Below, piece by piece: positions 5,301 to 34,790 of a stretch of DNA of 64,000 nucleotides. The position numbers and the translations under genes were made by a program. Source of the DNA: an uncultured Mobilibacterium sp. Its GTDB lineage: Bacteria; Bacillota; Clostridia; Peptostreptococcales; Anaerovoracaceae. Below the pieces are notes generated by a model, which saw only the letters and a list, made by a program, of their open reading frames with translations, had not been told where the DNA came from and made no database searches. The stretch covers positions 134,024 through 198,023 of the forward strand of contig CAMYCF010000001.1 in the NCBI GenBank assembly GCA_947254375.1, read 5' to 3'. Position 1 is the stretch's first letter. Each line of letters starts with the position of its first letter.

Positions 5301-6723
5301 CCACCGGTTTTTCGGCGAGCACGGCGATGTTCGCAAAATCGGCGACTTCCATGTCGACGGATTTCGCATACGTCTCAATAAAAGATCCGCATCCCGACGA
5401 GCACGCTTCGTTCAGCATGATGTTGTTGATCGCGCCGTCCTTCACCTTCATGCACTTCATGTCCTGACCGCCGATGTCGAGGATAAAAGTGACCCCAGGC
5501 AGGAATTCTTCGGCCGCCTTGTAGTGCGCCATAGTCTCGATCTCGCCGTCATCGACCTTGAAAGCCGCTTTTATGAGGGCTTCTCCGTATCCCGTCACGA
5601 CGGAATGCGCGATGTACGCCTTCTCCGGCATGAGCGCATAGACTTCTTTCAGTATTTCTTTGACGACTTCCAGAGGATTTCCCTCGTTGCCGCCGTAATA
5701 TTCGTAAAGGAGATCCCTGTCTTTATCGATAAGAGCCGCTTTCGTGGTCGTGGATCCCGCATCTATCCCGAGGAAAAGAGGTCCTTCCGCCGAAGCGATG
5801 TCCCCCCTTTGGATCTTCGCCTTATCGTGGCGCGCCTTGAACTCCGCGTACTCCTTTTCGTCCTTGAAAAGCGGATCGAGGTATTTGGTCGCACTTACCT
5901 TCGCGTTCTTCGATCTTTTTATCCTGCTGATGAGATGAGATATTTTTACCTGCCTCTCCCCGCCCGCGAGATATGCGGCGCCGAGAGCGACGAAGTACTT
6001 CGAATTTTCCGGGAAAATGACCTCGTCATCGGAGAGTTCGAGCGTTTTTATAAAAGCCTTCCGTAGCTCCGAAAGGTAGGTCAAAGGGCCGCCGAGAAAA
6101 GCGACGTGTCCCTCGATCGGGTGACCGCACGCGAGACCGCCTATCGTTTGGTTGACGACCGCCTGAAAAATGGACGCGGCGATGTCCGCCGTCTCCGCAC
6201 CGTCGTTGATGAGCGGCTGTATGTCAGTCTTCGCAAAAACGCCGCAGCGCGACGCTATCGGATAAATGATCTTTGCATTTTTGGCGGCTTCGTTCAGCCC
6301 CTGAGCGTCCGTGTTCAGAAGGACTGCCATTTGGTCGATAAAAGCCCCGGTGCCGCCGGCGCATGTCCCGTTCATCCTCTGCTCGACGGTCGCTCCGTAA
6401 TACGTTATTTTGGCGTCCTCGCCGCCGAGCTCTATCGCGACATCCGTCTCCGGTATCAGCGATTCCACGGCCTTGCTGCAGGAGATGACCTCCTGCTCGA
6501 ATCTGATGCCGAGTATGTCGGCGAGGCTCAGGCCTCCTGACCCCGTTATGACAGGACGCACGGAAAAATCCCCCTTCTCGTCCAAAAGCTGCTGAAGGAG
6601 GTCCCCAACTTTTTCGAAGACACTCGACATGTGCCTCTCGTATTTGGAATAAACTATGTCGTTATCATCATCGAGCACGACAAGTTTTACGGTCGTTGAC
6701 CCTACATCGATTCCCAGTCTCAT
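2356..6723 (-). CDS. Large activase/dehydratase fusion protein. Two tandem BadF/BadG/BcrA/BcrD (HgdC-like, ASKHA) ATPase domains are followed by a Cys-motif and an HgdB/D-like (DUF2229) domain. It belongs to the family annotated as CoA-substrate-specific enzyme activase. It is PlsA-like and a candidate plasmalogen synthase component.
   Basis: 1455 aa. N-terminal domain 1 begins MRLGIDVGSTTVKLVV. Domain 2 begins LFLGIDAGSTTTKAALI and contains CSSGCGSF. A CDKCGNKC motif is followed by about 800 aa of HgdB-like sequence. Confidence 0.8.
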   Translation of the reverse strand: MRLGIDVGSTTVKLVVLDDDNDIVYSKYERHMSSVFEKVGDLLQQLLDEKGDFSVRPVITGSGGLSLADILGIRFEQEVISCSKAVESLIPETDVAIELGGEDAKITYYGATVEQRMNGTCAGGTGAFIDQMAVLLNTDAQGLNEAAKNAKIIYPIASRCGVFAKTDIQPLINDGAETADIAASIFQAVVNQTIGGLACGHPIEGHVAFLGGPLTYLSELRKAFIKTLELSDDEVIFPENSKYFVALGAAYLAGGERQVKISHLISRIKRSKNAKVSATKYLDPLFKDEKEYAEFKARHDKAKIQRGDIASAEGPLFLGIDAGSTTTKAALIDKDRDLLYEYYGGNEGNPLEVVKEILKEVYALMPEKAYIAHSVVTGYGEALIKAAFKVDDGEIETMAHYKAAEEFLPGVTFILDIGGQDMKCMKVKDGAINNIMLNEACSSGCGSFIETYAKSVDMEVADFANIAVLAEKPVDLGTRCTVFMNSRVKQAQKEGVTVGDISAGLSYSVIKNALYKVIKLRNTDETGDKIVVQGGTFLNDAVLRSIEKILGKEVVRPDISGLMGAFGSAIIAESKWEALSAEERAKGSSLLSKEEIEDFTVENLNGRCDKCGNKCILTITKFPDGSRYVTGNRCERGAGIDIEDNDIPNMYQEKLKLLFSAKPLLAAEAKRGTIGMPRVLNMYEDYPFWHAFFTTLGFNIVLSPISSKKLYEAGMASISSDTACYPAKLVHGHIKKLVDKGVKRIFYPCINYETIEDVTAPNHYNCPIVATYPEVIDKNMAEIFYRNDVEFYHPFLPYDNDRKLVDQLYDFFRGERKVDTDSVANIAKTYDFKDDNREYSLFSLNIPKDEIKAAVEAGRRAYAEFKDKVREMGEKTLDYMEENGVKGIVLSGRPYHIDPEINHGIDKVITSLGMAVLTEDSISGRVETARPVRILDQWVYHSRLYKAAIFAGQRDDLELVQLNSFGCGLDAVTTDEVEELLSNNGKIYTVLKIDEGSNLGAAKIRIRSLKAALEERDKSGAKAGRTNEPYRRRTFTKEMRREGYTILMPQMSPIHFKYFEKIMNLMGYKAELLPETSKTSEEEGLRYINNDACYPTIVTLGQIIAALKSGKYDLDKVAIFMSQTGGGCRASNYVPLLRKALKDMGMSQVPVISFNVAGTESAPGFKISVKMGERLAYAAIYGDLMMKCLYRTRPYEKVPGSAQALMDSWFDRIIVNCQNLVDFEFRNNVIDIVKEFDALPLNEDVKKPRVGIVGEILVKYHPNANDNLVDLIEKEGGEAVVPSFVDFFEYGMLNKFFNYRYLSGKKTEMMVNRFVINKIERLRDIVRRACRRSERFTPDPHIEETAENASKIISIGNQCGEGWLLTGEMVELINSGVKNILCLQPFACLPNHVTGKGMIKALRNYDKEANIVAIDYDPGASNVNQLNRIKMMMSTAFKNLEKAQAEDKSPDAAGA

Positions 6724-6847
6724 TTTATACCCCTAAAATAAATACCCTTTTTGAGACCGCGCGGTTTTAAGTCCCCGCGGTCATATATGTGATGCTTCGA
6801 AATTTTACACGCAAAGATGTAGTGTTTCGAAAGCTTACACACAAAAT

Positions 6848-7197
6848 CGGGCAAACCGTAAGCCGGGTTCTGTATTTGACGATCATCCATCTTGTGCGGC
6901 TGTTACCAACCGCATCCAGCGACTTACCTACGGGCACAGCGGGCCACTGCTTTTCGCGCCCTGCTTAGTCTTGCTCCGGATGGGGTTTACACGGCCGCCG
7001 TGTCTCCACGACGCCGGTGAGCTCTTACCTCACCATTTCAACCTTACCACGGCATTACCCGTTTCGGCGGAATGTTTCTGTTGCACTTTCCCTATAGTTA
7101 CCTACGCCGGACGTTATCCGGCATCCTGCCCTACGGAGCCCGGACTTTCCTCGTGACTTGCACGCGATCGCCTGGTTTACCCATTTGAAAATTTTAC
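6848..7197 (-). ncRNA. rnpB: RNase P RNA, bacterial type A.
   Basis: Reverse complement reads GGGTAAACCAGGCGATCGCGTGCAAGTCACGAGGAAAGTCCGGGCTCCGTAGGGCAGGATGCC...GGTAAGAGCTCACC...ACAGAACCCGGCTTACGGTTTGCCCG. These are the universally conserved RNase P motifs. The P1 pairing is GGGTAAACC with GGTTTGCCC. An extended -10 promoter (TGgTAAAAT) lies just upstream. Confidence 0.85.
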
Positions 7198-7280
7198 CAC
7201 TTTTTACTAAAAATGTGTGCTTAAAATTAAAATTTTGCCTTTTGCGGTAAAAAATATTTTTTAGGCACACGTGTTTCCGC

Positions 7281-7309
7281 ATAAAAAGGCGGGGAAAGAG
7301 TTCCCCGCC
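7281..7309 (-). terminator. Rho-independent terminator after the surface-protein gene.
   Basis: Hairpin GGCGGGGAACTCTTTCCCCGCC followed by TTTTTAT, read on the minus strand. Confidence 0.6.
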
Positions 7310-7334: not shown

Positions 7335-8186
7335 TTATCCTATCCAAACTCCGTCCGATGAGAATTTGTAAGTTTTACCGTCGATTTTGACCTCTCCGCC
7401 TGCCTGCATTTTACCGTCGCTGTGCAGATAGTACCAGTACTTGCCGTCCTGTATCCAGCCGGTCTGCATCGCACCCGAGGTGCTCATGTAGTACCAGTTT
7501 TTATCGATGTACTTCCAGCCGGTCGCCATTCTGCCGTCTTCCGTGAGGTAGTATTTGCTTCCGGAGTCGGTGACCCAACCTATGAACCTTTTGCCATTGT
7601 CGATGAAGTACAAGTAGCTGTTATACAGGTACCAACCCTGATGACCTGCGCCGTTTGCTTCGAAGTAGTACCATGAGCCGGCCGTGTATTGCCACCCGGT
7701 CTGCATGATGCCGTCTTTGTTGACGTAATAGCGGTGACCGTCGGGTGCTTTGAAGACGGAATTGGTGAGCATAACGCTGTCTGAGATGTAATACCACTCG
7801 TTTCCATAATACAGCCAGCCCGTGAACTCTTTTCCGTCTTTGTCGTAGTAGTACCAGGTATTGTTTTGGTACTGCCAGCCCGTTTTCTTTTGAGGGAATT
7901 TATCGAGATCCGCTTTGGCGAGGTTGTAGTTTACGAGAGCCTCGTTATATTCCTTTGTGGCTTTCGCCAGATCATCGGCCGTCGCCTTTTCGTCGGCTGT
8001 AGCTTTTTCAAGTGCAGCCTTTGCTTTTTCCAATCTGTCGTTTGCTGCCGCGACGGCGTCATCGTAAGGCTTGAGGATGTCGGCAAGGACTCCGTATGTC
8101 GACGGGTCTCCTGCGACTGCCCCCCTTTGCAGCATCAAGCAACGGTTGGGTTTTCTCAATGCCTTCATTGGCCTTTTCATAATCAT
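7335..8186 (-). CDS. Cell-wall-binding (choline-binding-type, CW_binding_1) repeat segment. This is the C-terminal continuation of the 8059..10869 ORF after a frameshift, so it may be a pseudogene or phase-variable segment.
   Basis: Tandem ~20-aa GW/YY repeats: TGWQYQNNTWYYYDKDG, TGWLYYGNEWYYISDS, TGWQYTAGSWYYFEANG and others. No signal peptide of its own. The coiled-coil sequence continues seamlessly from the upstream frame. Confidence 0.6.
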   Translation of the reverse strand: MIMKRPMKALRKPNRCLMLQRGAVAGDPSTYGVLADILKPYDDAVAAANDRLEKAKAALEKATADEKATADDLAKATKEYNEALVNYNLAKADLDKFPQKKTGWQYQNNTWYYYDKDGKEFTGWLYYGNEWYYISDSVMLTNSVFKAPDGHRYYVNKDGIMQTGWQYTAGSWYYFEANGAGHQGWYLYNSYLYFIDNGKRFIGWVTDSGSKYYLTEDGRMATGWKYIDKNWYYMSTSGAMQTGWIQDGKYWYYLHSDGKMQAGGEVKIDGKTYKFSSDGVWIG

Positions 8187-10869
8187 TCACTATCTGCGCT
8201 CTTATATCTTCCTCTTTCTTAAGATCAGCTTTCGCTTTTGCAAGATCCCTTTCTGTCTCCTCGATATCCGCCTTCGTTTTTTTGTATTTTTCGATGGTTT
8301 CATCCGAAGGAAGAGTATCCAGCGCTTTCTGCGCAGCTGCTGCCTCGTTTTTCGCTGTCGTCAATTCTCCGTTTGCGGCGTCAAGATTTGATCTGAGGGA
8401 ATCGAGTTTAGCTTTGGTTTCATCCCTGTCTTTAACAGCTTTGTCATAGTTTTCCTGTGCCGTTTTTTCGGCTTCAGCAGCCGCATCGCAGTCGCTTTGC
8501 GCGCTGTCGAGTGCCGCTTTTGCTTCTTTTACTTCGTTTGAAAAGTCATCGAGTTTTCTGTTCGCTTTGTCGAGCGACTTCTTTGCGGCATTCTTCGATT
8601 CCGTGGCTGCAGCCAGTGCGGATCCTTTTTCCTGTACATCGCTCTTTGCATTTTCAAGAGAAGACGTCGTTTCCGCTATAAGCGCATCTATATCGCCTTT
8701 CGAAGAAATGAAATCCGCCAGAGCCTTATCTGCAACAGCCTGAGATGCTTTTGCCTCCGAAATAGCGCTTTCGGCGCTGTTCTTTTCCGATCCTTTTTCG
8801 GCGATTTTTTTATCCAGCTCCTTGCTCTCAGCTTTTTTATCCTGTAGCTCCTTATACACCGAATTCGACTGCTCACTCAACTTATCGGCGGCAGCCTTAA
8901 GCTCGGCACGCTTCTTTACTACACCATCGCTCGAATATTTCTGAGTAAGAGCCTTTTTACGGGAGAACGCTTCGTTATATACATCGACAGAAGCCGCAGC
9001 ACCGTGATTTTTCATAAAGTCGAGAATGGCTTTTCTCGCCTCATCGATCGGCATGGCTCCCTCTGTTAAGTCAGCGAACCGTTCGCCAGACGTGTGAGGC
9101 ACGTAAAAGTCTCCGGTATAATTCGGGATCGCAACAACGGCGGCCAAATTATGATCTCCTAATATGTTCAGATAATGTCCGACTCTGTGGAATTCAGTTA
9201 CACCCGAATCATACAGTTCTTTTTCTCTGTGGTACCAGCCATCGTTAGGATTATCGTATCCCCAAGATAAGTTTTCGGCATATGTATATGCATTCCCGTA
9301 TTTTCCCGGACCGAAGGAAGGCTCGTAAAATATCTTGTTTTCAAAAGCATAATGCGCTCCGCTGGCTCCTTTTGCGACAGCAGTAGCGATCGCGGTGCCC
9401 ACGATAGCATTGAAATGAGTTTTATAATCGCCGTGTTCAGGCTTATCCTTTGCCAGTATCCTGTTTTGGTCTTCCAAAATATCAAAACCGTCAAATACGG
9501 CATTGAACTTCAGAGCCTTATACATTTGTTCCCTTAATTTTATCTCATCAAGAAATGCTACGGCATCCATAGGCTCAGCTTTATATCCTTTTACCGTCTT
9601 GCCCTTCGCATTTGCATATACCGAATCTACGATTTTATCTATTGAATCGACACTGAACATATCGGCGAAAAAGGCATACATCGATCGATCCAAAGCATCC
9701 CCCGCTTTATATACATCGTCGAACGCCTTTTTGTATTCCGGATCCTGCGTAATGGTGAGTGCTCCGATCTGATCGTACAGGGAGGAGACCTGATTGCGCA
9801 GGTCGTTATACTCCTTCTGAAGCTCCGCTGCTTTGGCTACTGCATCTTTCTTTTGTGCTGTCAGAGAATCGTATTCATTTACGAGTGTATCATAAGCCGC
9901 CTGCTTTTCGGCAACGACAGCTTTGGCATCCGATTCATCTTTCTTCAGCTTGTCAAATTCAGGTTTCTCCTGCTTCAGATCCGAAAGTTTCTTCTCAAGA
10001 TCCGAAACATTTCCGTTCGCCTTATCAAGGGCATCCTGCGCATCTTTTTCCGCCTGAACGGCACTGTTGTATGCGGTCTCTGCTTCAGCGGCCGCTTTCT
10101 GTGCATCGGCATACTCCGAGCTCTCTCCGGTGAGCGAAGCATATTTTTCTTTTGCGGCATTGAGCGCTTCTGATTTCTGTAACGTATTTGCTTTAGCATC
10201 ATTGAGCGCGCTTTCCAAAGGTGCGACCTTTGAGACGGCCTCATTGTATGAAGTCTCTGTCGATTCGATCTCGGAATTCAATGAAGCTACCTTCTTTTCC
10301 GCTTCTTCTTTTTTTACTGCATCATCGAGGTCTTTTTTCGCATTGGCGATCTGCGCTTCAAGTTCGGACAGTTTGTCAAAATCTACGGAAGGATTTTCCT
10401 TTTTGATCTTTTCAAGCTCATCGTTCAGGGTTTTTAGTCTATTCTCGCAGTAGTATACGCCACTCTGCGCCTCCTCGACCCGTCGATTCCACTCTCTGAG
10501 CCCCATTTGAGCCTCACTGCTCTTGAAGTTATATTCATCAAGTGCAGCCTGATATTCTTTTATAAGTCCGTCGATTTTAGCTTTTCTGTCAGCCTCCGCT
10601 TTTTCGGCAGCTGCCGACGCCTCTGCAGACTCGGTCTCGGCAGATGTCTTCGCCGCCTTATCCATTGCAGCCTTTGCAGCCTCAAGCCTCTCGCTTGCTT
10701 TTGCAAACGCCGCAAGGGCCTCCGCCCTGTTCGTCGCGTGGTGATATTCCGGAGCGACGGTGTCCCTTACAGGCTGGGTGTTCGGTTCGTTTTCGTTCGC
10801 GAAGATCTGCATCGCTAAGCCGGTCTGCGCAAAGTTCGTCGAAAAAAGCGTCGACCCGAGCATCGTCAC
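8059..10869 (-). CDS. Surface protein, N-terminal part. Long coiled-coils flank a CAP/SCP (YkwD-like) domain. Reported as 936 aa. The start codon is uncertain: GTG at 10869, ATG at 10863, or a further upstream non-ATG start.
   Basis: Heptad-rich, Ala/Lys/Glu coiled-coil sequence. The central domain carries ...EFHRVGHYLNILGDHNLAAVVAIP..., matching the GHRxNIL motif of the YkwD/CAP family. It ends in a frame that overlaps the next ORF by 128 nt. Confidence 0.7.
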   Translation of the reverse strand: MTMLGSTLFSTNFAQTGLAMQIFANENEPNTQPVRDTVAPEYHHATNRAEALAAFAKASERLEAAKAAMDKAAKTSAETESAEASAAAEKAEADRKAKIDGLIKEYQAALDEYNFKSSEAQMGLREWNRRVEEAQSGVYYCENRLKTLNDELEKIKKENPSVDFDKLSELEAQIANAKKDLDDAVKKEEAEKKVASLNSEIESTETSYNEAVSKVAPLESALNDAKANTLQKSEALNAAKEKYASLTGESSEYADAQKAAAEAETAYNSAVQAEKDAQDALDKANGNVSDLEKKLSDLKQEKPEFDKLKKDESDAKAVVAEKQAAYDTLVNEYDSLTAQKKDAVAKAAELQKEYNDLRNQVSSLYDQIGALTITQDPEYKKAFDDVYKAGDALDRSMYAFFADMFSVDSIDKIVDSVYANAKGKTVKGYKAEPMDAVAFLDEIKLREQMYKALKFNAVFDGFDILEDQNRILAKDKPEHGDYKTHFNAIVGTAIATAVAKGASGAHYAFENKIFYEPSFGPGKYGNAYTYAENLSWGYDNPNDGWYHREKELYDSGVTEFHRVGHYLNILGDHNLAAVVAIPNYTGDFYVPHTSGERFADLTEGAMPIDEARKAILDFMKNHGAAASVDVYNEAFSRKKALTQKYSSDGVVKKRAELKAAADKLSEQSNSVYKELQDKKAESKELDKKIAEKGSEKNSAESAISEAKASQAVADKALADFISSKGDIDALIAETTSSLENAKSDVQEKGSALAAATESKNAAKKSLDKANRKLDDFSNEVKEAKAALDSAQSDCDAAAEAEKTAQENYDKAVKDRDETKAKLDSLRSNLDAANGELTTAKNEAAAAQKALDTLPSDETIEKYKKTKADIEETERDLAKAKADLKKEEDIRAQIVNDYEKANEGIEKTQPLLDAAKGGSRRRPVDIRSPCRHPQALR

Positions 10870-11035
10870 GGCCGCCGCTTTTTTGATAGAAAAGTTCTTA
10901 TTCAGGTTTTTCTCCTTGTTCAGTTACGGTCCTTGATTATGGAACTATAGCTAATGTGATTAAATTGTAACAATCTTTTCGTTTCGTTGCAATCTATTAA
11001 TTTATTTCTTGTTTAATTTTACCGTAAAAGTTCCG

Positions 11036-12109
11036 TTAAATTTTATCGCGCCCCCTTCTCCGGTTCTTTTTTACCTCGATGATAAAATTCACGAAAAGCA
11101 GCGTGATCACCGCCATACCGATGTATCCGTGTATCGGGTACAGGTATTCGACGATCGTCTTGAAGCCCGTGAGGCCCAGGAGCGCCGCCGCTATGGCGCC
11201 GAGTATCAGTATCGCGCCCTTCTTTATATTCTCGTCCGATATGCGCGTGCTGAAACCGTAGTAAGTGCTCGTCGCCGTCGAAAAGATCGCGGCATACAGA
11301 ACTATCGCGAAGATGAAGTTCAGGAATTTCGAGAGACGCATCGAGTAGCCGAGCATCGGAAGGTCGAGGCTGCTCGAGAACGCCATGTCCTTCTGAAGGA
11401 CAGCGATCAGCATGATCGTTATGCCTCCGAGTAAAAGCGTTCCGAAAGCCGCACCGCCGAAAGCGTTTTTGTCGCTTTTTACCGACAGGGCCGTGTCGCC
11501 CGCTATCGAAAGCATCCCGATCGAGTTGTAGCAGACGAAGACCATGGCGGCGAGCTTCCAGTCGCCCGTCATGCTCCCCGGCTTATATCCCGTCACGGCT
11601 CCGCTCTGCCCGATGTGGGAGCAAAGCACGGCCGTCATCGTAACGATATTGATTATAAAAAGCGTAGGCACCAGGTATTTGAACGTCTCCTGCACGCGGT
11701 CGAAATCGCCGAGGACTGTCGCCACCGCAAGGAAAGCGATCGCTACGCCGCCGAACGCCTTGTTTATATGGAACTGATAGTGAAGGAGCGAGCCGCCCGC
11801 CGCGCTCATAGCGATGAGCATCGTGTAATAAAGAATGCCGATGATGATAGACAACGCCTTCTCCGCCTTTTCGTTCTCGAACGGTATCACGATCTTCGCG
11901 ATGTCGGATGTCTTCTTGCTCCTCGCGACATATGTCATCATGAAGCTGACAAATACGAATCCGCATGTGGCTAAAAGAGCGCCGGTGTACGCGTGTTTCC
12001 CGAACACGGCAAAAAACTGCCAGCTCTCTCTGCCTGACGTAAATCCCGCCCCCATTATCACTCCGAGGAACATGTATGAAACACTTAGAAAGCTTTCCCT
12101 TCTCCTCAT
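11036..12109 (-). CDS. YkvI-family polytopic membrane protein, an amino-acid-permease-like putative transporter.
   Basis: 357 aa with multiple TM segments. N-terminal motif GVIMGAGFTSGRE resembles YkvI (GAGFASGQE). RBS AAGGAG. Confidence 0.55.
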   Translation of the reverse strand: MRRRESFLSVSYMFLGVIMGAGFTSGRESWQFFAVFGKHAYTGALLATCGFVFVSFMMTYVARSKKTSDIAKIVIPFENEKAEKALSIIIGILYYTMLIAMSAAGGSLLHYQFHINKAFGGVAIAFLAVATVLGDFDRVQETFKYLVPTLFIINIVTMTAVLCSHIGQSGAVTGYKPGSMTGDWKLAAMVFVCYNSIGMLSIAGDTALSVKSDKNAFGGAAFGTLLLGGITIMLIAVLQKDMAFSSSLDLPMLGYSMRLSKFLNFIFAIVLYAAIFSTATSTYYGFSTRISDENIKKGAILILGAIAAALLGLTGFKTIVEYLYPIHGYIGMAVITLLFVNFIIEVKKNRRRGRDKI

Positions 12110-12142: not shown

Positions 12143-12874
12143 CTACACGATCTCTTTTCCTGCTCCCGCCTTCCGGAGCAGTTCTTTCAGATACTCTCCG
12201 TTTCTTTCGAGCTCTTCTATCTTCTTCGTCCTGTCGTTTTTGCACGCCTTCATGTTGCGGATCGACTCGTCGATCGCGTCCAGTTTCCAGCCGATCAGCC
12301 TACTGAGCAGCTTTGGATCGCACGACGACAGCTCCTCGGGATATGTCCACCTGATGTCGCCTTTCGGGTAAGGAAGCGGTCTTTCCGTGTATCCTTCGAT
12401 CGGCGCCGCCGTTATTACCTTCCTGACAAAATCCCCCTCCGAAACGAGCTTCTCCGATGACACATCAAAGCCGTTCACAAAGAGCCAGTACCTGAGCTCG
12501 CCGCTTTTATTCCTCGGCTCCATGATAAATTTCCGGTAAGAGCGTGTCTTATCGATATCGCAGCCCAGTATTTCGATCATGGCGCCGCCGCCGAGACCCG
12601 CGATCACGACCGTATCGACTTCGCCTTTTTCGAGCGTCTCGAGACCGGAACCGACCATGAAATCGCATTTATCGGCGGGGATCCCGCGGATGCGGCAGTT
12701 CTCCATAGCTTTCGAAAGCGAACCTTCGCTTATGTCGCTCATGATGACGAAGTCGGATGTGCCGTCCGATATTATTTTGATAGGCAAATAGCCGTGGTCG
12801 GTCCCGATGTCCGCCACGCGTTCGCCCTTTTTTATTTCATCCGATATCGCGGATATCCTCTCCGTCGCTCTCAC
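12143..12874 (-). CDS. trmK: tRNA (adenine22-N1)-methyltransferase TrmK. GTG start.
   Basis: 243 aa class I SAM methyltransferase with a TrmK-like N-terminus: ADIGTDHGYLPIKII...VIAGLGGG. It sits in the conserved position downstream of sigA (B. subtilis yqfN). Confidence 0.8.
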   Translation of the reverse strand: MRATERISAISDEIKKGERVADIGTDHGYLPIKIISDGTSDFVIMSDISEGSLSKAMENCRIRGIPADKCDFMVGSGLETLEKGEVDTVVIAGLGGGAMIEILGCDIDKTRSYRKFIMEPRNKSGELRYWLFVNGFDVSSEKLVSEGDFVRKVITAAPIEGYTERPLPYPKGDIRWTYPEELSSCDPKLLSRLIGWKLDAIDESIRNMKACKNDRTKKIEELERNGEYLKELLRKAGAGKEIV

Positions 12875-26861: not shown

Positions 26862-26948
26862 AAATAACACCGGGGGAGCTTTCGCTGAGAAATCCATTGG
26901 ATGACCCTTATACCTGATTCGGATAATGCCGACGTAGGAAGGTAAAAA
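26862..26948 (+). ncRNA. TPP (THI-box) riboswitch.
   Basis: CACCGGGGGAGC...CTGAGA...ACCCTTATACCTGATTCGGATAATGCCGACGTAGGAAGG. The conserved CUGAGA, ACCUGAU, GGAUAAUGCC and GCGUAGGAA elements are all present. It lies upstream of thiT. A C-rich segment downstream could sequester the AAGGAGG RBS. Confidence 0.85.
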
Positions 26949-27014
26949 AGTCGATCGCGTTTCAAGCACGACGGACACGGAAGTACACCCCCCTTATTCT
27001 AAGGAGGTTTTTTT

Positions 27015-27665
27015 ATGTCAGGAAACATACAGCACTTTTTCGAAAGCACGCAGGGACAGATCCTCTCGATCGCAGTCATCGCGGTAGCGCTGCTCCTCAT
27101 CATGATCGGCGACAAAAAGTCCGGTAAAAAGACGGACACCAAGGCGCTGACGATCTCTGCACTGATGATCGCGATGGCGATCGTCCTCAACCAGATAAAA
27201 CTCTTTCACATGCCTCAGGGCGGTTCGGTCACCCTGCTCTCGCTCCTTCCGATAGTCCTCGTGGGCTACTTCTTCGGACCGCGCAGAGGCATCATCGCCG
27301 GCATATGCGTGGGCATGCTCGACCTGATCCTGAATCCGTACGTAATACACCCGATACAGCTTCTCGTCGACTACCCTCTCGCCTTCGGTGCGCTCGGCAT
27401 GTCCGGCCTCATGAAGGATAAAAAGAACGGCCTGACGAAGGGATACATCCTCGGCGTCTTCTCGAGATACATCTGCGCAGTAATAAGCGGCATCGTATTC
27501 TTCGGTGCATACGCGCCTAAAAATTTCAACGCCGTCACATGGTCCCTCTGGTACAACCTCACGTACCTCGGCGCCGAAGCCGTGATAACCCTCGTTATCA
27601 TAAATATCCCGCCGGTAAAAAGCGCATTCCAGCGCATGAAGAATTCTATCGAGAACGGCAGATAG
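27015..27665 (+). CDS. thiT: ECF-transporter S component ThiT (thiamine).
   Basis: 216 aa, 6 TM. MPQGGSVTLLSLLPI matches the ThiT substrate-binding loop. Riboswitch-controlled and adjacent to thiN. Confidence 0.75.
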   Translation: MSGNIQHFFESTQGQILSIAVIAVALLLIMIGDKKSGKKTDTKALTISALMIAMAIVLNQIKLFHMPQGGSVTLLSLLPIVLVGYFFGPRRGIIAGICVGMLDLILNPYVIHPIQLLVDYPLAFGALGMSGLMKDKKNGLTKGYILGVFSRYICAVISGIVFFGAYAPKNFNAVTWSLWYNLTYLGAEAVITLVIINIPPVKSAFQRMKNSIENGR

Positions 27666-33042: not shown

Positions 33043-34790
33043 CTCGCTACCCTCCACTCGCTCGCCTGTTTGAACAGATCCTGGAACCGCTTGTAACGGC
33101 CGCCCTCAGCCATGAGCTCGGCGTGAGTTCCCCTTTCGATCGCTTTGCCGTCCTCGATAAAAAGGATCTCGTCCACGTCGTGGATCCCGGACAGCCTGTG
33201 CGCTATCATTATTACGGTCTTCCCCTTCATGAGTTCCGTGAAGGCCCTCTGGAGCTCGTACTCGTTGTCCGGGTCGTTCGCGGCACTCGCCTCGTCGAGT
33301 ATGACTATTGGCGAGTCTTTAAGTATCGCCCTCGCTATCGCTATCCTCTGGACCTCTCCGCCTGAAAGGTGGACGCCCTTTGCGCCGATCATCGTGTCTT
33401 CGCGTGTCTCGAACTTATCGAGGATGTCGCTGCACTGCGCGGCTTCGAGGGCTTTCATGACCTCTTCCCTGCTTTTATTCGGATCTCCGATCTGAACGTT
33501 ATCGTAGATGCTCATTTTAAAAAGCTTTGAATCCTGGAAGATAAAAGCGATGTTTCTCTCGAGCGTCCCGGATGTGTACTCCGTTATATCGTGCCCCCCG
33601 ATACGGAGTGATCCTCCCCTTACCGGGTAAAAACCGGATATCAGCTTGGCTATCGTCGACTTCCCGCCGCCGGACGAGCCCACAAGGGCGTATCTCCTGT
33701 TGCCCGGAAGCTTCAGTGAGAAGTTCTCGAGGACGTTCGAGCATTCTTCATATCCGAATGTAACGTTCCTGAACTCGATGTCGTTGTTATCCATTTCGGT
33801 AAGGCTGCCCGTCGACAGTTTATCCTTATCCATGCTCTCGAAAACGCCCTCGAGCTTCGTCAGCGTATCGTTTGCGAGCGAAAAATTCTTCTGGAAGAAC
33901 ATTATTTTTACGAATGCGTTAAAAAGCAATCCGGCGAAGGCCATTACAAAGACGACAAGCGTTATGACGGCTCCCGTCTCCGCTCCTCCGTCTATCCTTT
34001 TTACGGCGATCGGTATCATGAAGGCGGCGAAGTTCATCATTATGCACTGGAACATGATGAACGGTATCTTGCACGTTTTGCACTGCTTATTTACCACCTC
34101 GGAATATTTCGTGATCGCCTGATACAGCTTTTCGAACGATTCGATGACCGTGTCGAAGATCTTTATGACCTGGATCCCCCTGACGTATTCGACCGTCTGC
34201 GAATTGATGTCCTCTAAGGCTTCCATATATTCGCGCATCATGGCCTCGCTGCTCCCGCCGTACATGAATTTGAAGCATATCATTGCGGCGACGATCGCGA
34301 GGATGACGAGTATGCCGATCTCATAGCCCGCATAGAACGCGAGAGCGATGAGACATATCGGGAAAAGTATCGCGTTCACCGTGTCAGGCAGTACATGTGC
34401 GACGATCGTGTGCGTGTTTGCGGAATTGTCGTCGATTATCTTTCTCGTCCTACCCGACGTGTTCACGTCGAAGAAGGAGAATCCCGCATCGAGCAGATGT
34501 CTCAGACCCGCCTTCTTCAGATTCGTCTCTATCCTGAATGCGAAGACGTGGCTGCAGATGAGCGCGAAAAAGTATGTCAATCCGTACAGAAGCGTCGCGA
34601 TCATCATCATGATCGCTATATGCTTAACGGTACCGACATCGGCGCTCCCCGTCATCTCCGACAGGATCTGCCAGAAGAAATAGTACGGAAGGAATGACAG
34701 GATAGTGGCTACGCCCGAAAGGATCATGGCCGCTGCCATAAATCCCTTCTTCTCGCCCCCGTACGAAAACAGCTTTCTGAAAACAGCCAT
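33039..34790 (-). CDS. ABC exporter half-transporter (TMD-NBD), partner of the preceding gene; a likely heterodimeric exporter. Start at ATG 34790 (MAVFRKL).
   Basis: Walker A GSSGGGKST, signature LSGGEVQRIAIARA, Walker B IVILDEASAANDPD. Confidence 0.85.
   Translation of the reverse strand: MAVFRKLFSYGGEKKGFMAAAMILSGVATILSFLPYYFFWQILSEMTGSADVGTVKHIAIMMMIATLLYGLTYFFALICSHVFAFRIETNLKKAGLRHLLDAGFSFFDVNTSGRTRKIIDDNSANTHTIVAHVLPDTVNAILFPICLIALAFYAGYEIGILVILAIVAAMICFKFMYGGSSEAMMREYMEALEDINSQTVEYVRGIQVIKIFDTVIESFEKLYQAITKYSEVVNKQCKTCKIPFIMFQCIMMNFAAFMIPIAVKRIDGGAETGAVITLVVFVMAFAGLLFNAFVKIMFFQKNFSLANDTLTKLEGVFESMDKDKLSTGSLTEMDNNDIEFRNVTFGYEECSNVLENFSLKLPGNRRYALVGSSGGGKSTIAKLISGFYPVRGGSLRIGGHDITEYTSGTLERNIAFIFQDSKLFKMSIYDNVQIGDPNKSREEVMKALEAAQCSDILDKFETREDTMIGAKGVHLSGGEVQRIAIARAILKDSPIVILDEASAANDPDNEYELQRAFTELMKGKTVIMIAHRLSGIHDVDEILFIEDGKAIERGTHAELMAEGGRYKRFQDLFKQASEWRVAR

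Follow-up and report, generated by a model that had tools for sequence, protein, structure and literature searches.

PrgA, the pCF10 surface-exclusion protein of Enterococcus faecalis (PDB 6z9l/6z9k), carries a CAP head and a C-terminal wall anchor, and its two-helix, antiparallel stalk of 38.5 nm is built from arms of 250-270 aa (bioRxiv 10.1101/2020.06.18.156562). Attachment to the wall can also be provided by other modules. Firmicutes choline-binding proteins such as the pneumococcal CBPs place C-terminal GW/YY repeats of about 20 aa after a functional N-terminal module.

Two further kinds of described loci concern reading frames that depend on short runs of one nucleotide. In SSR contingency loci, among them the poly-G genes of Campylobacter and Neisseria and bvgS with its C6 tract, an in-frame G/C run sets the frame of a surface-protein gene. 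Phasome prediction with PhasomeIt applies a cut-off of at least 7 nt to G/C tracts, and such tracts may mutate at rates below 1e-5 (PMC6321876). A Bordetella screen used tracts longer than 8 nt and noted C6 in bvgS as an exception (PMC1891110). Since this C6 tract varies, tract length alone is not decisive. In singleton 'fs-genes' (Antonov et al. 2013, PMC3711429) an indel in a short run, limited to a single species, splits a recognisable gene. Programmed frameshift sites, by comparison, are recognised through cross-genus conservation, and sites of transcriptional realignment are homopolymers of about 8 nt or more, mostly A/T (PMC3711429). The split surface-protein gene described here shares features with each of these systems and departs from each.

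Two overlapping reading frames meet at a G run

The gene lies on the minus strand of a DNA stretch of 64,000 nt, which was analysed as a whole and is referred to as the window. The ORF listing of the window gives a 936-aa ORF in frame A (8059-10869) and a mechanical 283-aa ORF (7335-8186) with its ATG at 8186. As had been stated in the preliminary description, the two ORFs are in separate frames and overlap by 128 nt (8059-8186). Frame A encodes an N-terminal helical arm, a CAP-like head, most of a C-terminal arm and an out-of-frame tail of 11 aa. The last 11 codons of its translation follow a G6 run (C6 on the plus strand) at 8120-8125, the sole homopolymer of at least 6 nt within the overlap. 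The plus strand around this run reads ...gactgCCCCCCtttgc... and the coding strand AAAGGGGGGCAG. From 8119 down to 7335, frame B continues with the last ~75 aa of the C-terminal arm and the wall-binding repeats. The coiled-coil runs across the junction, from ...LLDAAKGG in frame A to AVAGDPSTYGVLADIL... in frame B.

To locate the frame change, all possible switch points between 8050 and 8192 were compared in a codon-usage likelihood scan trained on the gene's own codons outside the overlap. The scan displayed a single peak at 8118-8125 with log-odds of about 12-14 and dropped to about -9 at the edges. It thus places the frame change on the G run and bears out the earlier proposal that one gene is broken there by a frameshift. 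The window has few C6/G6 runs: 5 in 64 kb, where shuffles that preserve dinucleotides gave 23.8 +/- 6.3. That one of them should fall on the switch point by chance is therefore unlikely, and the run is the mutated site. Overall, G/C runs of at least 6 nt are about five-fold depleted in the 64-kb window, and the longest is shorter than 7 nt.

The gene was rebuilt in silico with G4 to G8 at 8120-8125. With G6, as sequenced, the product comprises 936 aa. Single ORFs of 1177 aa (...LLDAAKGAVAGDPSTYG...) and 1178 aa were obtained with G5 and G8, respectively; counted from the likely CTG start described below, the repaired products have 1189 aa (G5) and 1190 aa (G8). In contrast, G7, which had been proposed to restore a single ORF, is wrong in this respect and leads to 979 aa in the third frame. 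The junction peptide of a full-length product, whether recoded or made from a repaired allele, would be …LLDAAKGAVAGDPSTYGVLADILK…. A paralogous segment within the gene points to the ancestral length of the tract. Positions 10671-10687, at the base of the N-terminal arm, are 94% identical to 8124-8140 (DNA repeat family D3) and continue with AAG-GCT-GCA, whereas the G-run site has AAG-GGG-G-GCA. This suggests an ancestral tract of G5 or shorter at 8120-8125.

Transcription and translation signals were searched on the same strand. A promoter-like site at 10964-10992 consists of TTGCAA, a 17-nt spacer and TG-TACAAT and is a candidate by consensus match only. Downstream of it, a putative Shine-Dalgarno (SD) sequence AAGGAG (10917-10912) is separated by a 6-nt spacer from a CTG codon (10905-10903), the whole element spanning 10903-10917. 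AAGGAG is the sole SD sequence upstream and serves only this CTG. Of the canonical start codons, GTG (10869) and ATG (10863), neither has an SD sequence or a charged n-region. Translation from the CTG yields a signal peptide of textbook type, MNKNFSIKKAAAVTMLGSTLFSTNFAQTGLA, and an in-frame TAA lies upstream at 10926-10924. Judged from these sequence features, CTG at 10905 is likely to be the true start. It would be either a rare, weak start codon in use or a start codon that has been mutated as well.

A terminator-like hairpin on the minus strand, with a 9-bp stem including 7 GC pairs and a T-run, was found at 7288-7309, 26 nt past the stop codon of the repeat ORF. Between the two ORFs, the terminator scan revealed weak stems of 5-6 bp and no comparably strong site. 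With a promoter-like site in front of the gene and the only strong terminator beyond the repeat ORF, the arrangement would fit a single transcription unit. No SD sequence precedes the ATG of the 283-aa ORF and, with MIMKRPMKALRKPNRCLMLQRG at the N-terminus, this ORF provides no signal peptide, so that the repeats could not be secreted by themselves.

Domain layout compared with PrgA and choline-binding proteins

Pfam analysis of the split gene's protein detected choline-binding repeats at the C-terminus and nothing else. The assignment of these repeats in the preliminary description was confirmed at E=1e-22 for PF19127 and E=1.6e-18 for PF01473. About eight well-formed choline-binding or cell-wall-binding units of the GW..WYY.. 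type occupy 7338-7868 on the minus strand, as judged from Pfam, the repeat listing and DNA repeat families D1 and D2. As in the choline-binding proteins of Firmicutes, the repeats follow C-terminally on the N-terminal module. Unlike in these proteins, in which PF01473/PF19127 repeats are joined to an exported module, the array here is read in a different frame from the export signal and the functional module.

The head, ~275 aa in the middle of the protein, is encoded at 8920-9747 on the minus strand, with a core at about 9058-9546, and is assigned by profile, AF2 and Foldseek to a divergent CAP / PR-1-like alpha-beta-alpha fold. A CAP domain had been named before from the sequence. PF00188 was absent from the split gene's protein in Pfam searches even at E<=10, and phmmer of the head against PDB returned no match. 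Against 1.84 billion cluster representatives, phmmer recovered one near-identical protein and 120 distant ones with at most 62 bits. Seven family members (P0003, P0004, P0005, P0009, P0012, P0032 and P0085) carry PF00188 at the aligned place. In alignment A1, which comprises 21 sequences of the head-domain family, the CAP cavity tetrad H506, E532, E549 and H565 (ORF numbering) is invariant or near-invariant, and the window strain keeps it intact. The A1 profile matched Pry1p (E=1.7e-6) and GAPR-1 (E=2.8e-5) in PDB. The AF2 model of the head reached a pLDDT of 73 and a pTM of 0.75. With this model, Foldseek retrieved Pry1, PR-1, natrin and GAPR-1 at probabilities of 0.95-1.0 but E-values of only 0.06-0.5; PrgA (6z9l) was second in rank with a probability of 0.60, and the PrgA CAP domain ranked 26. 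The earlier CAP assignment thus stands with respect to the family profile and the top structural matches, while it has no counterpart in Pfam. At profile and predicted-fold level, the head belongs to the CAP / PR-1 superfamily, below the detection by Pfam.

The head is flanked by Ala/Glu/Lys-rich helical arms of ~330 aa on the N-terminal side (about aa 45-375) and ~350 aa on the C-terminal side, 65-67% of which consist of AEKLDQ. Helices are predicted at aa 29-370 and 608-914 by single-sequence AF2 of the 936-aa ORF. This full-length model is of low confidence (pLDDT 53), and Foldseek searches with it returned generic helical hairpins, so the pairing of the arms is deduced by analogy. If PrgA is taken as a guide, the arms probably run antiparallel to each other and form a stalk that would hold the head tens of nanometres off the wall; scaled from the arm length of PrgA, the stalk might measure about 49 nm.

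The order of signal peptide, long helix, CAP head barely visible to sequence searches, long helix and wall attachment is common to the intact protein and PrgA. In contrast to PrgA, with arms of 250-270 aa and an LPXTG sortase anchor, the protein has arms of ~330 and ~350 aa and choline-binding repeats. Its gene is frameshifted and occupies a chromosomal site flanked by a membrane-protein gene and rnpB. No conjugation genes were seen beside it and no plasmid matched, whereas the setting of PrgA-like surface-exclusion proteins is a conjugative element with aggregation-substance and T4SS genes alongside. The protein's similarity to PrgA is weak and lies chiefly in the fold and the order of parts. 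In its intact form, the protein would be a very long PrgA-like protein in which choline-binding repeats replace the sortase motif. The G run lies precisely where the displayed module, consisting of stalk and CAP head, joins the wall anchor.

A homologue search with the fused protein returned the sister-strain fragment and two distant matches, and nothing more. The same word-index search with the head alone found nothing and missed even the identical P0001, which shows that the index is patchy. Exact-product look-ups with the 283-aa ORF, the 934-aa ORF, TrmK and the 429-aa ORF were without success. Among the distant family members, P0085 combines CAP and choline-binding repeats in one intact protein. 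P0003, P0007 and P0016 consist of coiled-coil, CAP and coiled-coil followed by an SPNTG sortase anchor, and others end in C-terminal SLH, dockerin or DUF5648 modules. As these distant relatives carry head and anchor together, one polypeptide is the normal state. Relative to such homologues, with head and C-terminal anchor in one ORF, the frame of the gene studied here is broken. The swapping of anchors among distant relatives of the head (sortase, SLH, dockerin, DUF5648, choline-binding) illustrates the free exchange of this module.

No orthologue outside the species was found in the 1.84 billion representatives, the GTDB species genomes or the JGI metagenomes. Likewise, neither a DNA pattern across the G run with variable gap nor a protein scan detected a relative in metagenome contigs, and the head domain had no tblastn match among plasmids.

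Chromosomal setting and the lesions in two strains

The gene is bounded downstream by rnpB (class A RNase P RNA, 6844-7183 on the minus strand; Rfam, 279.7 bits) and upstream by a gene for a 357-aa membrane protein (11036-12109, minus strand), as seen from the ORF listing and synteny. The closest counterparts of the neighbouring 1455-aa gene are in Mobilibacterium timonense (73% aa identity) and Mogibacterium kristiansenii (72%), followed by Anaerovoracaceae MAGs from rumen or gut. The order g606, g429, trmK, 357-aa membrane protein, 1455-aa gene and g241 is kept in eight relatives. In none of the eight, namely M. timonense, M. kristiansenii and six MAGs, did tblastn of the surface gene give a match. 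In the relatives L003, L004 and L006, the membrane-protein gene is directly followed by rnpB, which has the 1455-aa gene on its other side. Because relatives without the gene have rnpB adjoining the membrane-protein gene, the surface gene is a lineage-specific insertion of 3.85 kb. Its G+C content of 0.45-0.49 is below the 0.53-0.55 of the flanks. Absence from the syntenic site together with the lower G+C content indicates a dispensable, recently acquired gene. The intact form would represent a single-gene chromosomal insertion adjoining rnpB in an Anaerovoracaceae lineage. Repeats flanking the insertion were searched for a target-site duplication or the ends of a mobile element, and none was convincing.

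A look-up with the membrane protein led to three sequencing runs, SRR31019815, SRR31019816 and SRR31019817, whose Logan assemblies contain the locus at 99.8% identity. Two assembled sequences of this sister strain, L001 and L002, differ from the window by seven common substitutions and a common in-frame indel of 3 nt (GAA). An eighth substitution at 7895 lies past the end of L002. The agreement of L001 and L002 on substitutions and indel shows that the strains truly differ at these positions and that noise is not the cause. L001, the only additional assembly covering the G run, has G6 as in the window, so that both of the two strains share this length. Since G6 is common to both strains, it is older than the strain split and no assembly artefact. 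The lesion at the G run is real.

The sister strain has acquired further changes in the gene. Codon 746 (8632-8634, minus strand), CAG for Gln in the window, is the stop codon TAG in L001 and L002, which explains the length of 744 aa of the database product P0001. A substitution in the helical arm (L170P), L445F and one synonymous change are also common to both sequences, while P98S in the repeat frame was seen in L001 only. Between the strains, 4 amino-acid or nonsense changes stand against 1 synonymous change in the gene, compared to 2 against 1 in the flanks. A dN/dS test between the strains was dropped, the substitutions being too few. The open downstream ORF was likewise discarded as a sign of selection, as a divergence of ~0.15% predicts about one substitution per 700 nt. 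At this divergence, the open repeat ORF and the intact repeats are uninformative on selection.

A lesion present in both strains and a later nonsense codon in one of them indicate a young pseudogene under relaxed selection. We regard it as probable that a real +1 G insertion is common to both strains and that the gene is in early decay, which makes it a young frameshift pseudogene and no switch. The product of the intact gene would have been secreted and about 1190 aa long, with signal peptide, ~330-aa arm, CAP head, ~350-aa arm and ~eight repeats, and the choline-binding repeats would have held it on the wall. A single-G insertion at 8120-8125, most simply and presumably in the direction G5 to G6, would then have split the gene. 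From this point on, the cell would make at best an anchorless protein of 936 aa, and loss of function appears to be the consequence as far as the sequence can tell. The sister lineage would subsequently have gained a second, unconditional knock-out by the nonsense codon. Against a pseudogene it counts that the window strain has no canonical second lesion and an intact CAP tetrad.

A fixed pseudogene, listed before as one of several alternatives, is now the favoured reading. According to the preliminary description, a dead pseudogene should show G6 uniformly in related strains together with degenerate downstream repeats. G6 was uniform in two strains; the repeats were not degenerate, which is not yet expected at ~0.15% divergence. 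Like the singleton fs-genes, the locus combines a short-run indel in a recognisable gene confined to one species with a further lesion in the sister strain, and it lacks a slippery motif shared between genera. Unlike them, it is at a very young stage of decay with an open downstream part, well-formed repeats and an intact head tetrad. The split gene is probably an ordinary recent frameshift pseudogene of known kinds and opens no long-standing question. The two ORFs are best annotated as one frameshifted pseudogene, neither as two genes nor as a contingency locus.

Alternatives to a pseudogene

Loss of the anchor might have occurred without death of the gene. An anchorless protein, of 936 aa in the window strain and of 744 aa with the CAP head in the sister strain, would in that case still be made from the weak start, secreted and functional, and the event would amount to a domain loss. 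Neither truncation removes the signal peptide, the N-terminal arm or any part of the CAP head with its tetrad, and the promoter-like site and the SD sequence are intact. However, the 744-aa form has lost most of the returning helix and could not fold a stalk if the arms pair as in PrgA. L170P falls in an arm, the sole start codon served by an SD sequence is CTG, and no orthologue presents the anchorless form as a conserved state. We consider a functional anchorless product unlikely.

Slipped-strand phase variation, in which the length of the G run toggles between an anchored (G5/G8) and a truncated (G6) protein, is less probable still. The mononucleotide run is located exactly at the frame change of a surface-protein gene, the C6 tract in bvgS of B. 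pertussis is phase variable (PMC1891110), and the indel at the (GAA)n tract within the split gene is a polymorphism of slippage type. The G run nevertheless differs from SSR contingency loci in several respects. G6 is below the usual thresholds, including the cut-off of at least 7 for G/C tracts, and only G5 is an ON allele within one step. Both strains have G6 without any length polymorphism (two strains), and G/C runs are five-fold depleted with none at 7 in 64 kb. The AAG-GCT-GCA of the paralogous N-arm segment argues that a long tract was no ancestral design. Moreover, the upstream nonsense codon of the sister strain is beyond rescue by any change in the tract. Such a codon is unexpected, because a gene kept by switching selection should be otherwise intact. 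The classic phase-variation arrangement seen in the preliminary description is therefore not supported, given the short G6 run, the absence of polymorphism in the two strains, the upstream stop codon, the depletion of G/C runs and the incorrect G7 repair. A more restricted version, with the G run as a low-frequency switch of the bvgS type between a wall-anchored (G5/G8) and a released (G6) protein, rather than between on and off, and a sister strain that has lost the system, is very improbable.

Programmed recoding would reconcile the G6 run with the production of some full-length anchored protein, either by a +1 slip of tRNA-Gly on GGG-G or by transcriptional slippage. A +1 slip on A-AAG-GGG-GGC-A lands exactly in the repeat frame, and the G run itself (AGGGGG) is SD-like. 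The stimulator of +1 frameshifting in prfB is likewise an SD-like sequence. In contrast, G6 does not belong to the known motif types (an A/T run of at least 8 or a heptamer X-XXY-YYZ), the A site holds neither a rare nor a stop codon, and there is no conservation to appeal to, as no orthologues were found. In addition, the upstream stop codon of the sister strain abolishes any full-length product. The probability left to recoding is very small.

An equally slight chance remains for a sequencing or assembly error in an intact gene with G5, since homopolymers are the commonest sites of indel errors on some platforms. Against such an error, L001 was assembled independently from other runs, of another strain, and also shows G6, the other C6 runs fall within open ORFs and no further clear split gene was found in the window. 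The C6 run at 5802 is situated inside the 1455-aa gene, which matches its relatives over the full length, and that at 33594 inside an open ORF of 606 aa. C6 runs in ORFs other than the split gene are in frame, and the split gene at 7335-10869 is the sole clear one in the densely coding 64-kb window.

Start codon and arm repeats of the surface gene

Inspection of the start region of the surface gene (10903-10926, minus strand) revealed no canonical start codon with a Shine-Dalgarno sequence. The region contains an AAGGAG Shine-Dalgarno motif followed after 6 nt by a CTG at 10905, and translation from this CTG yields a proper signal peptide. Two readings fit this codon: the gene may start at CTG, a rare initiation codon, or its original start codon may have mutated, the latter being a possible second lesion of the gene.

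Comparison of the window with the Logan strain, a 99.8%-identical sister strain, displayed an in-frame 3-nt (GAA/AAG) repeat-length polymorphism on the minus strand (window ~10300-10315; Logan contig L001 2637-2639). The corresponding protein segment reads KKEEAEKK in the window and KKEEEAEKK in the Logan strain. This length difference is slippage-type variation inside the surface gene itself. Furthermore, the start of the N-terminal arm resembles the end of the C-terminal arm at the DNA as well as the protein level (10655-10699 and 10671-10687 versus 8002-8046 and 8124-8140; RLEAAKAAM...KEYQAALDEYN versus RLEKAKAAL...KEYNEALVNYN). If the two arms formed an antiparallel stalk, these stretches would pair with each other at its base.

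The rnpB gene at the insertion boundary

The class A RNase P RNA gene (rnpB; 6844-7183, minus strand, 279.7 bits) is flanked in the window by the terminator of the surface gene on one side and the 1455-aa gene on the other. Two mechanically called ORFs, 7055-7282 (minus strand) and 6971-7156 (plus strand), both overlap rnpB and were rejected as spurious. In relatives, the membrane-protein gene is followed directly by rnpB, which therefore marks the boundary of the lineage-specific insertion carrying the surface gene.

Lineage, further strains and other features of the window

The conserved 1455-aa enzyme shares only ~73% amino acid identity with the closest GTDB r232 genomes (Mobilibacterium timonense and Mogibacterium kristiansenii). 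The lineage thus appears to be an Anaerovoracaceae species, perhaps a genus, without a GTDB r232 representative. A contig look-up by encoded protein also placed the 357-aa membrane protein in three blocks of 0.2-1 Mb contigs, which could represent more strains of the surface-gene locus. The protein homologue search missed a 100%-identical 306-aa match to P0001, the database protein of the Logan strain.

In the housekeeping gene trmK, the window differs from the Logan strain by two non-synonymous changes, M73R and S76A, 8 nt apart (12649-12657, minus strand), and the gene is otherwise near-identical in the two. This pair could be a small recombination patch.

A TPP riboswitch (26862-26957, plus strand, 65.8 bits) lies upstream of ORF 27015-27665 (plus strand), and one of the five C6 runs in the window (26988-26993) is located between the two.
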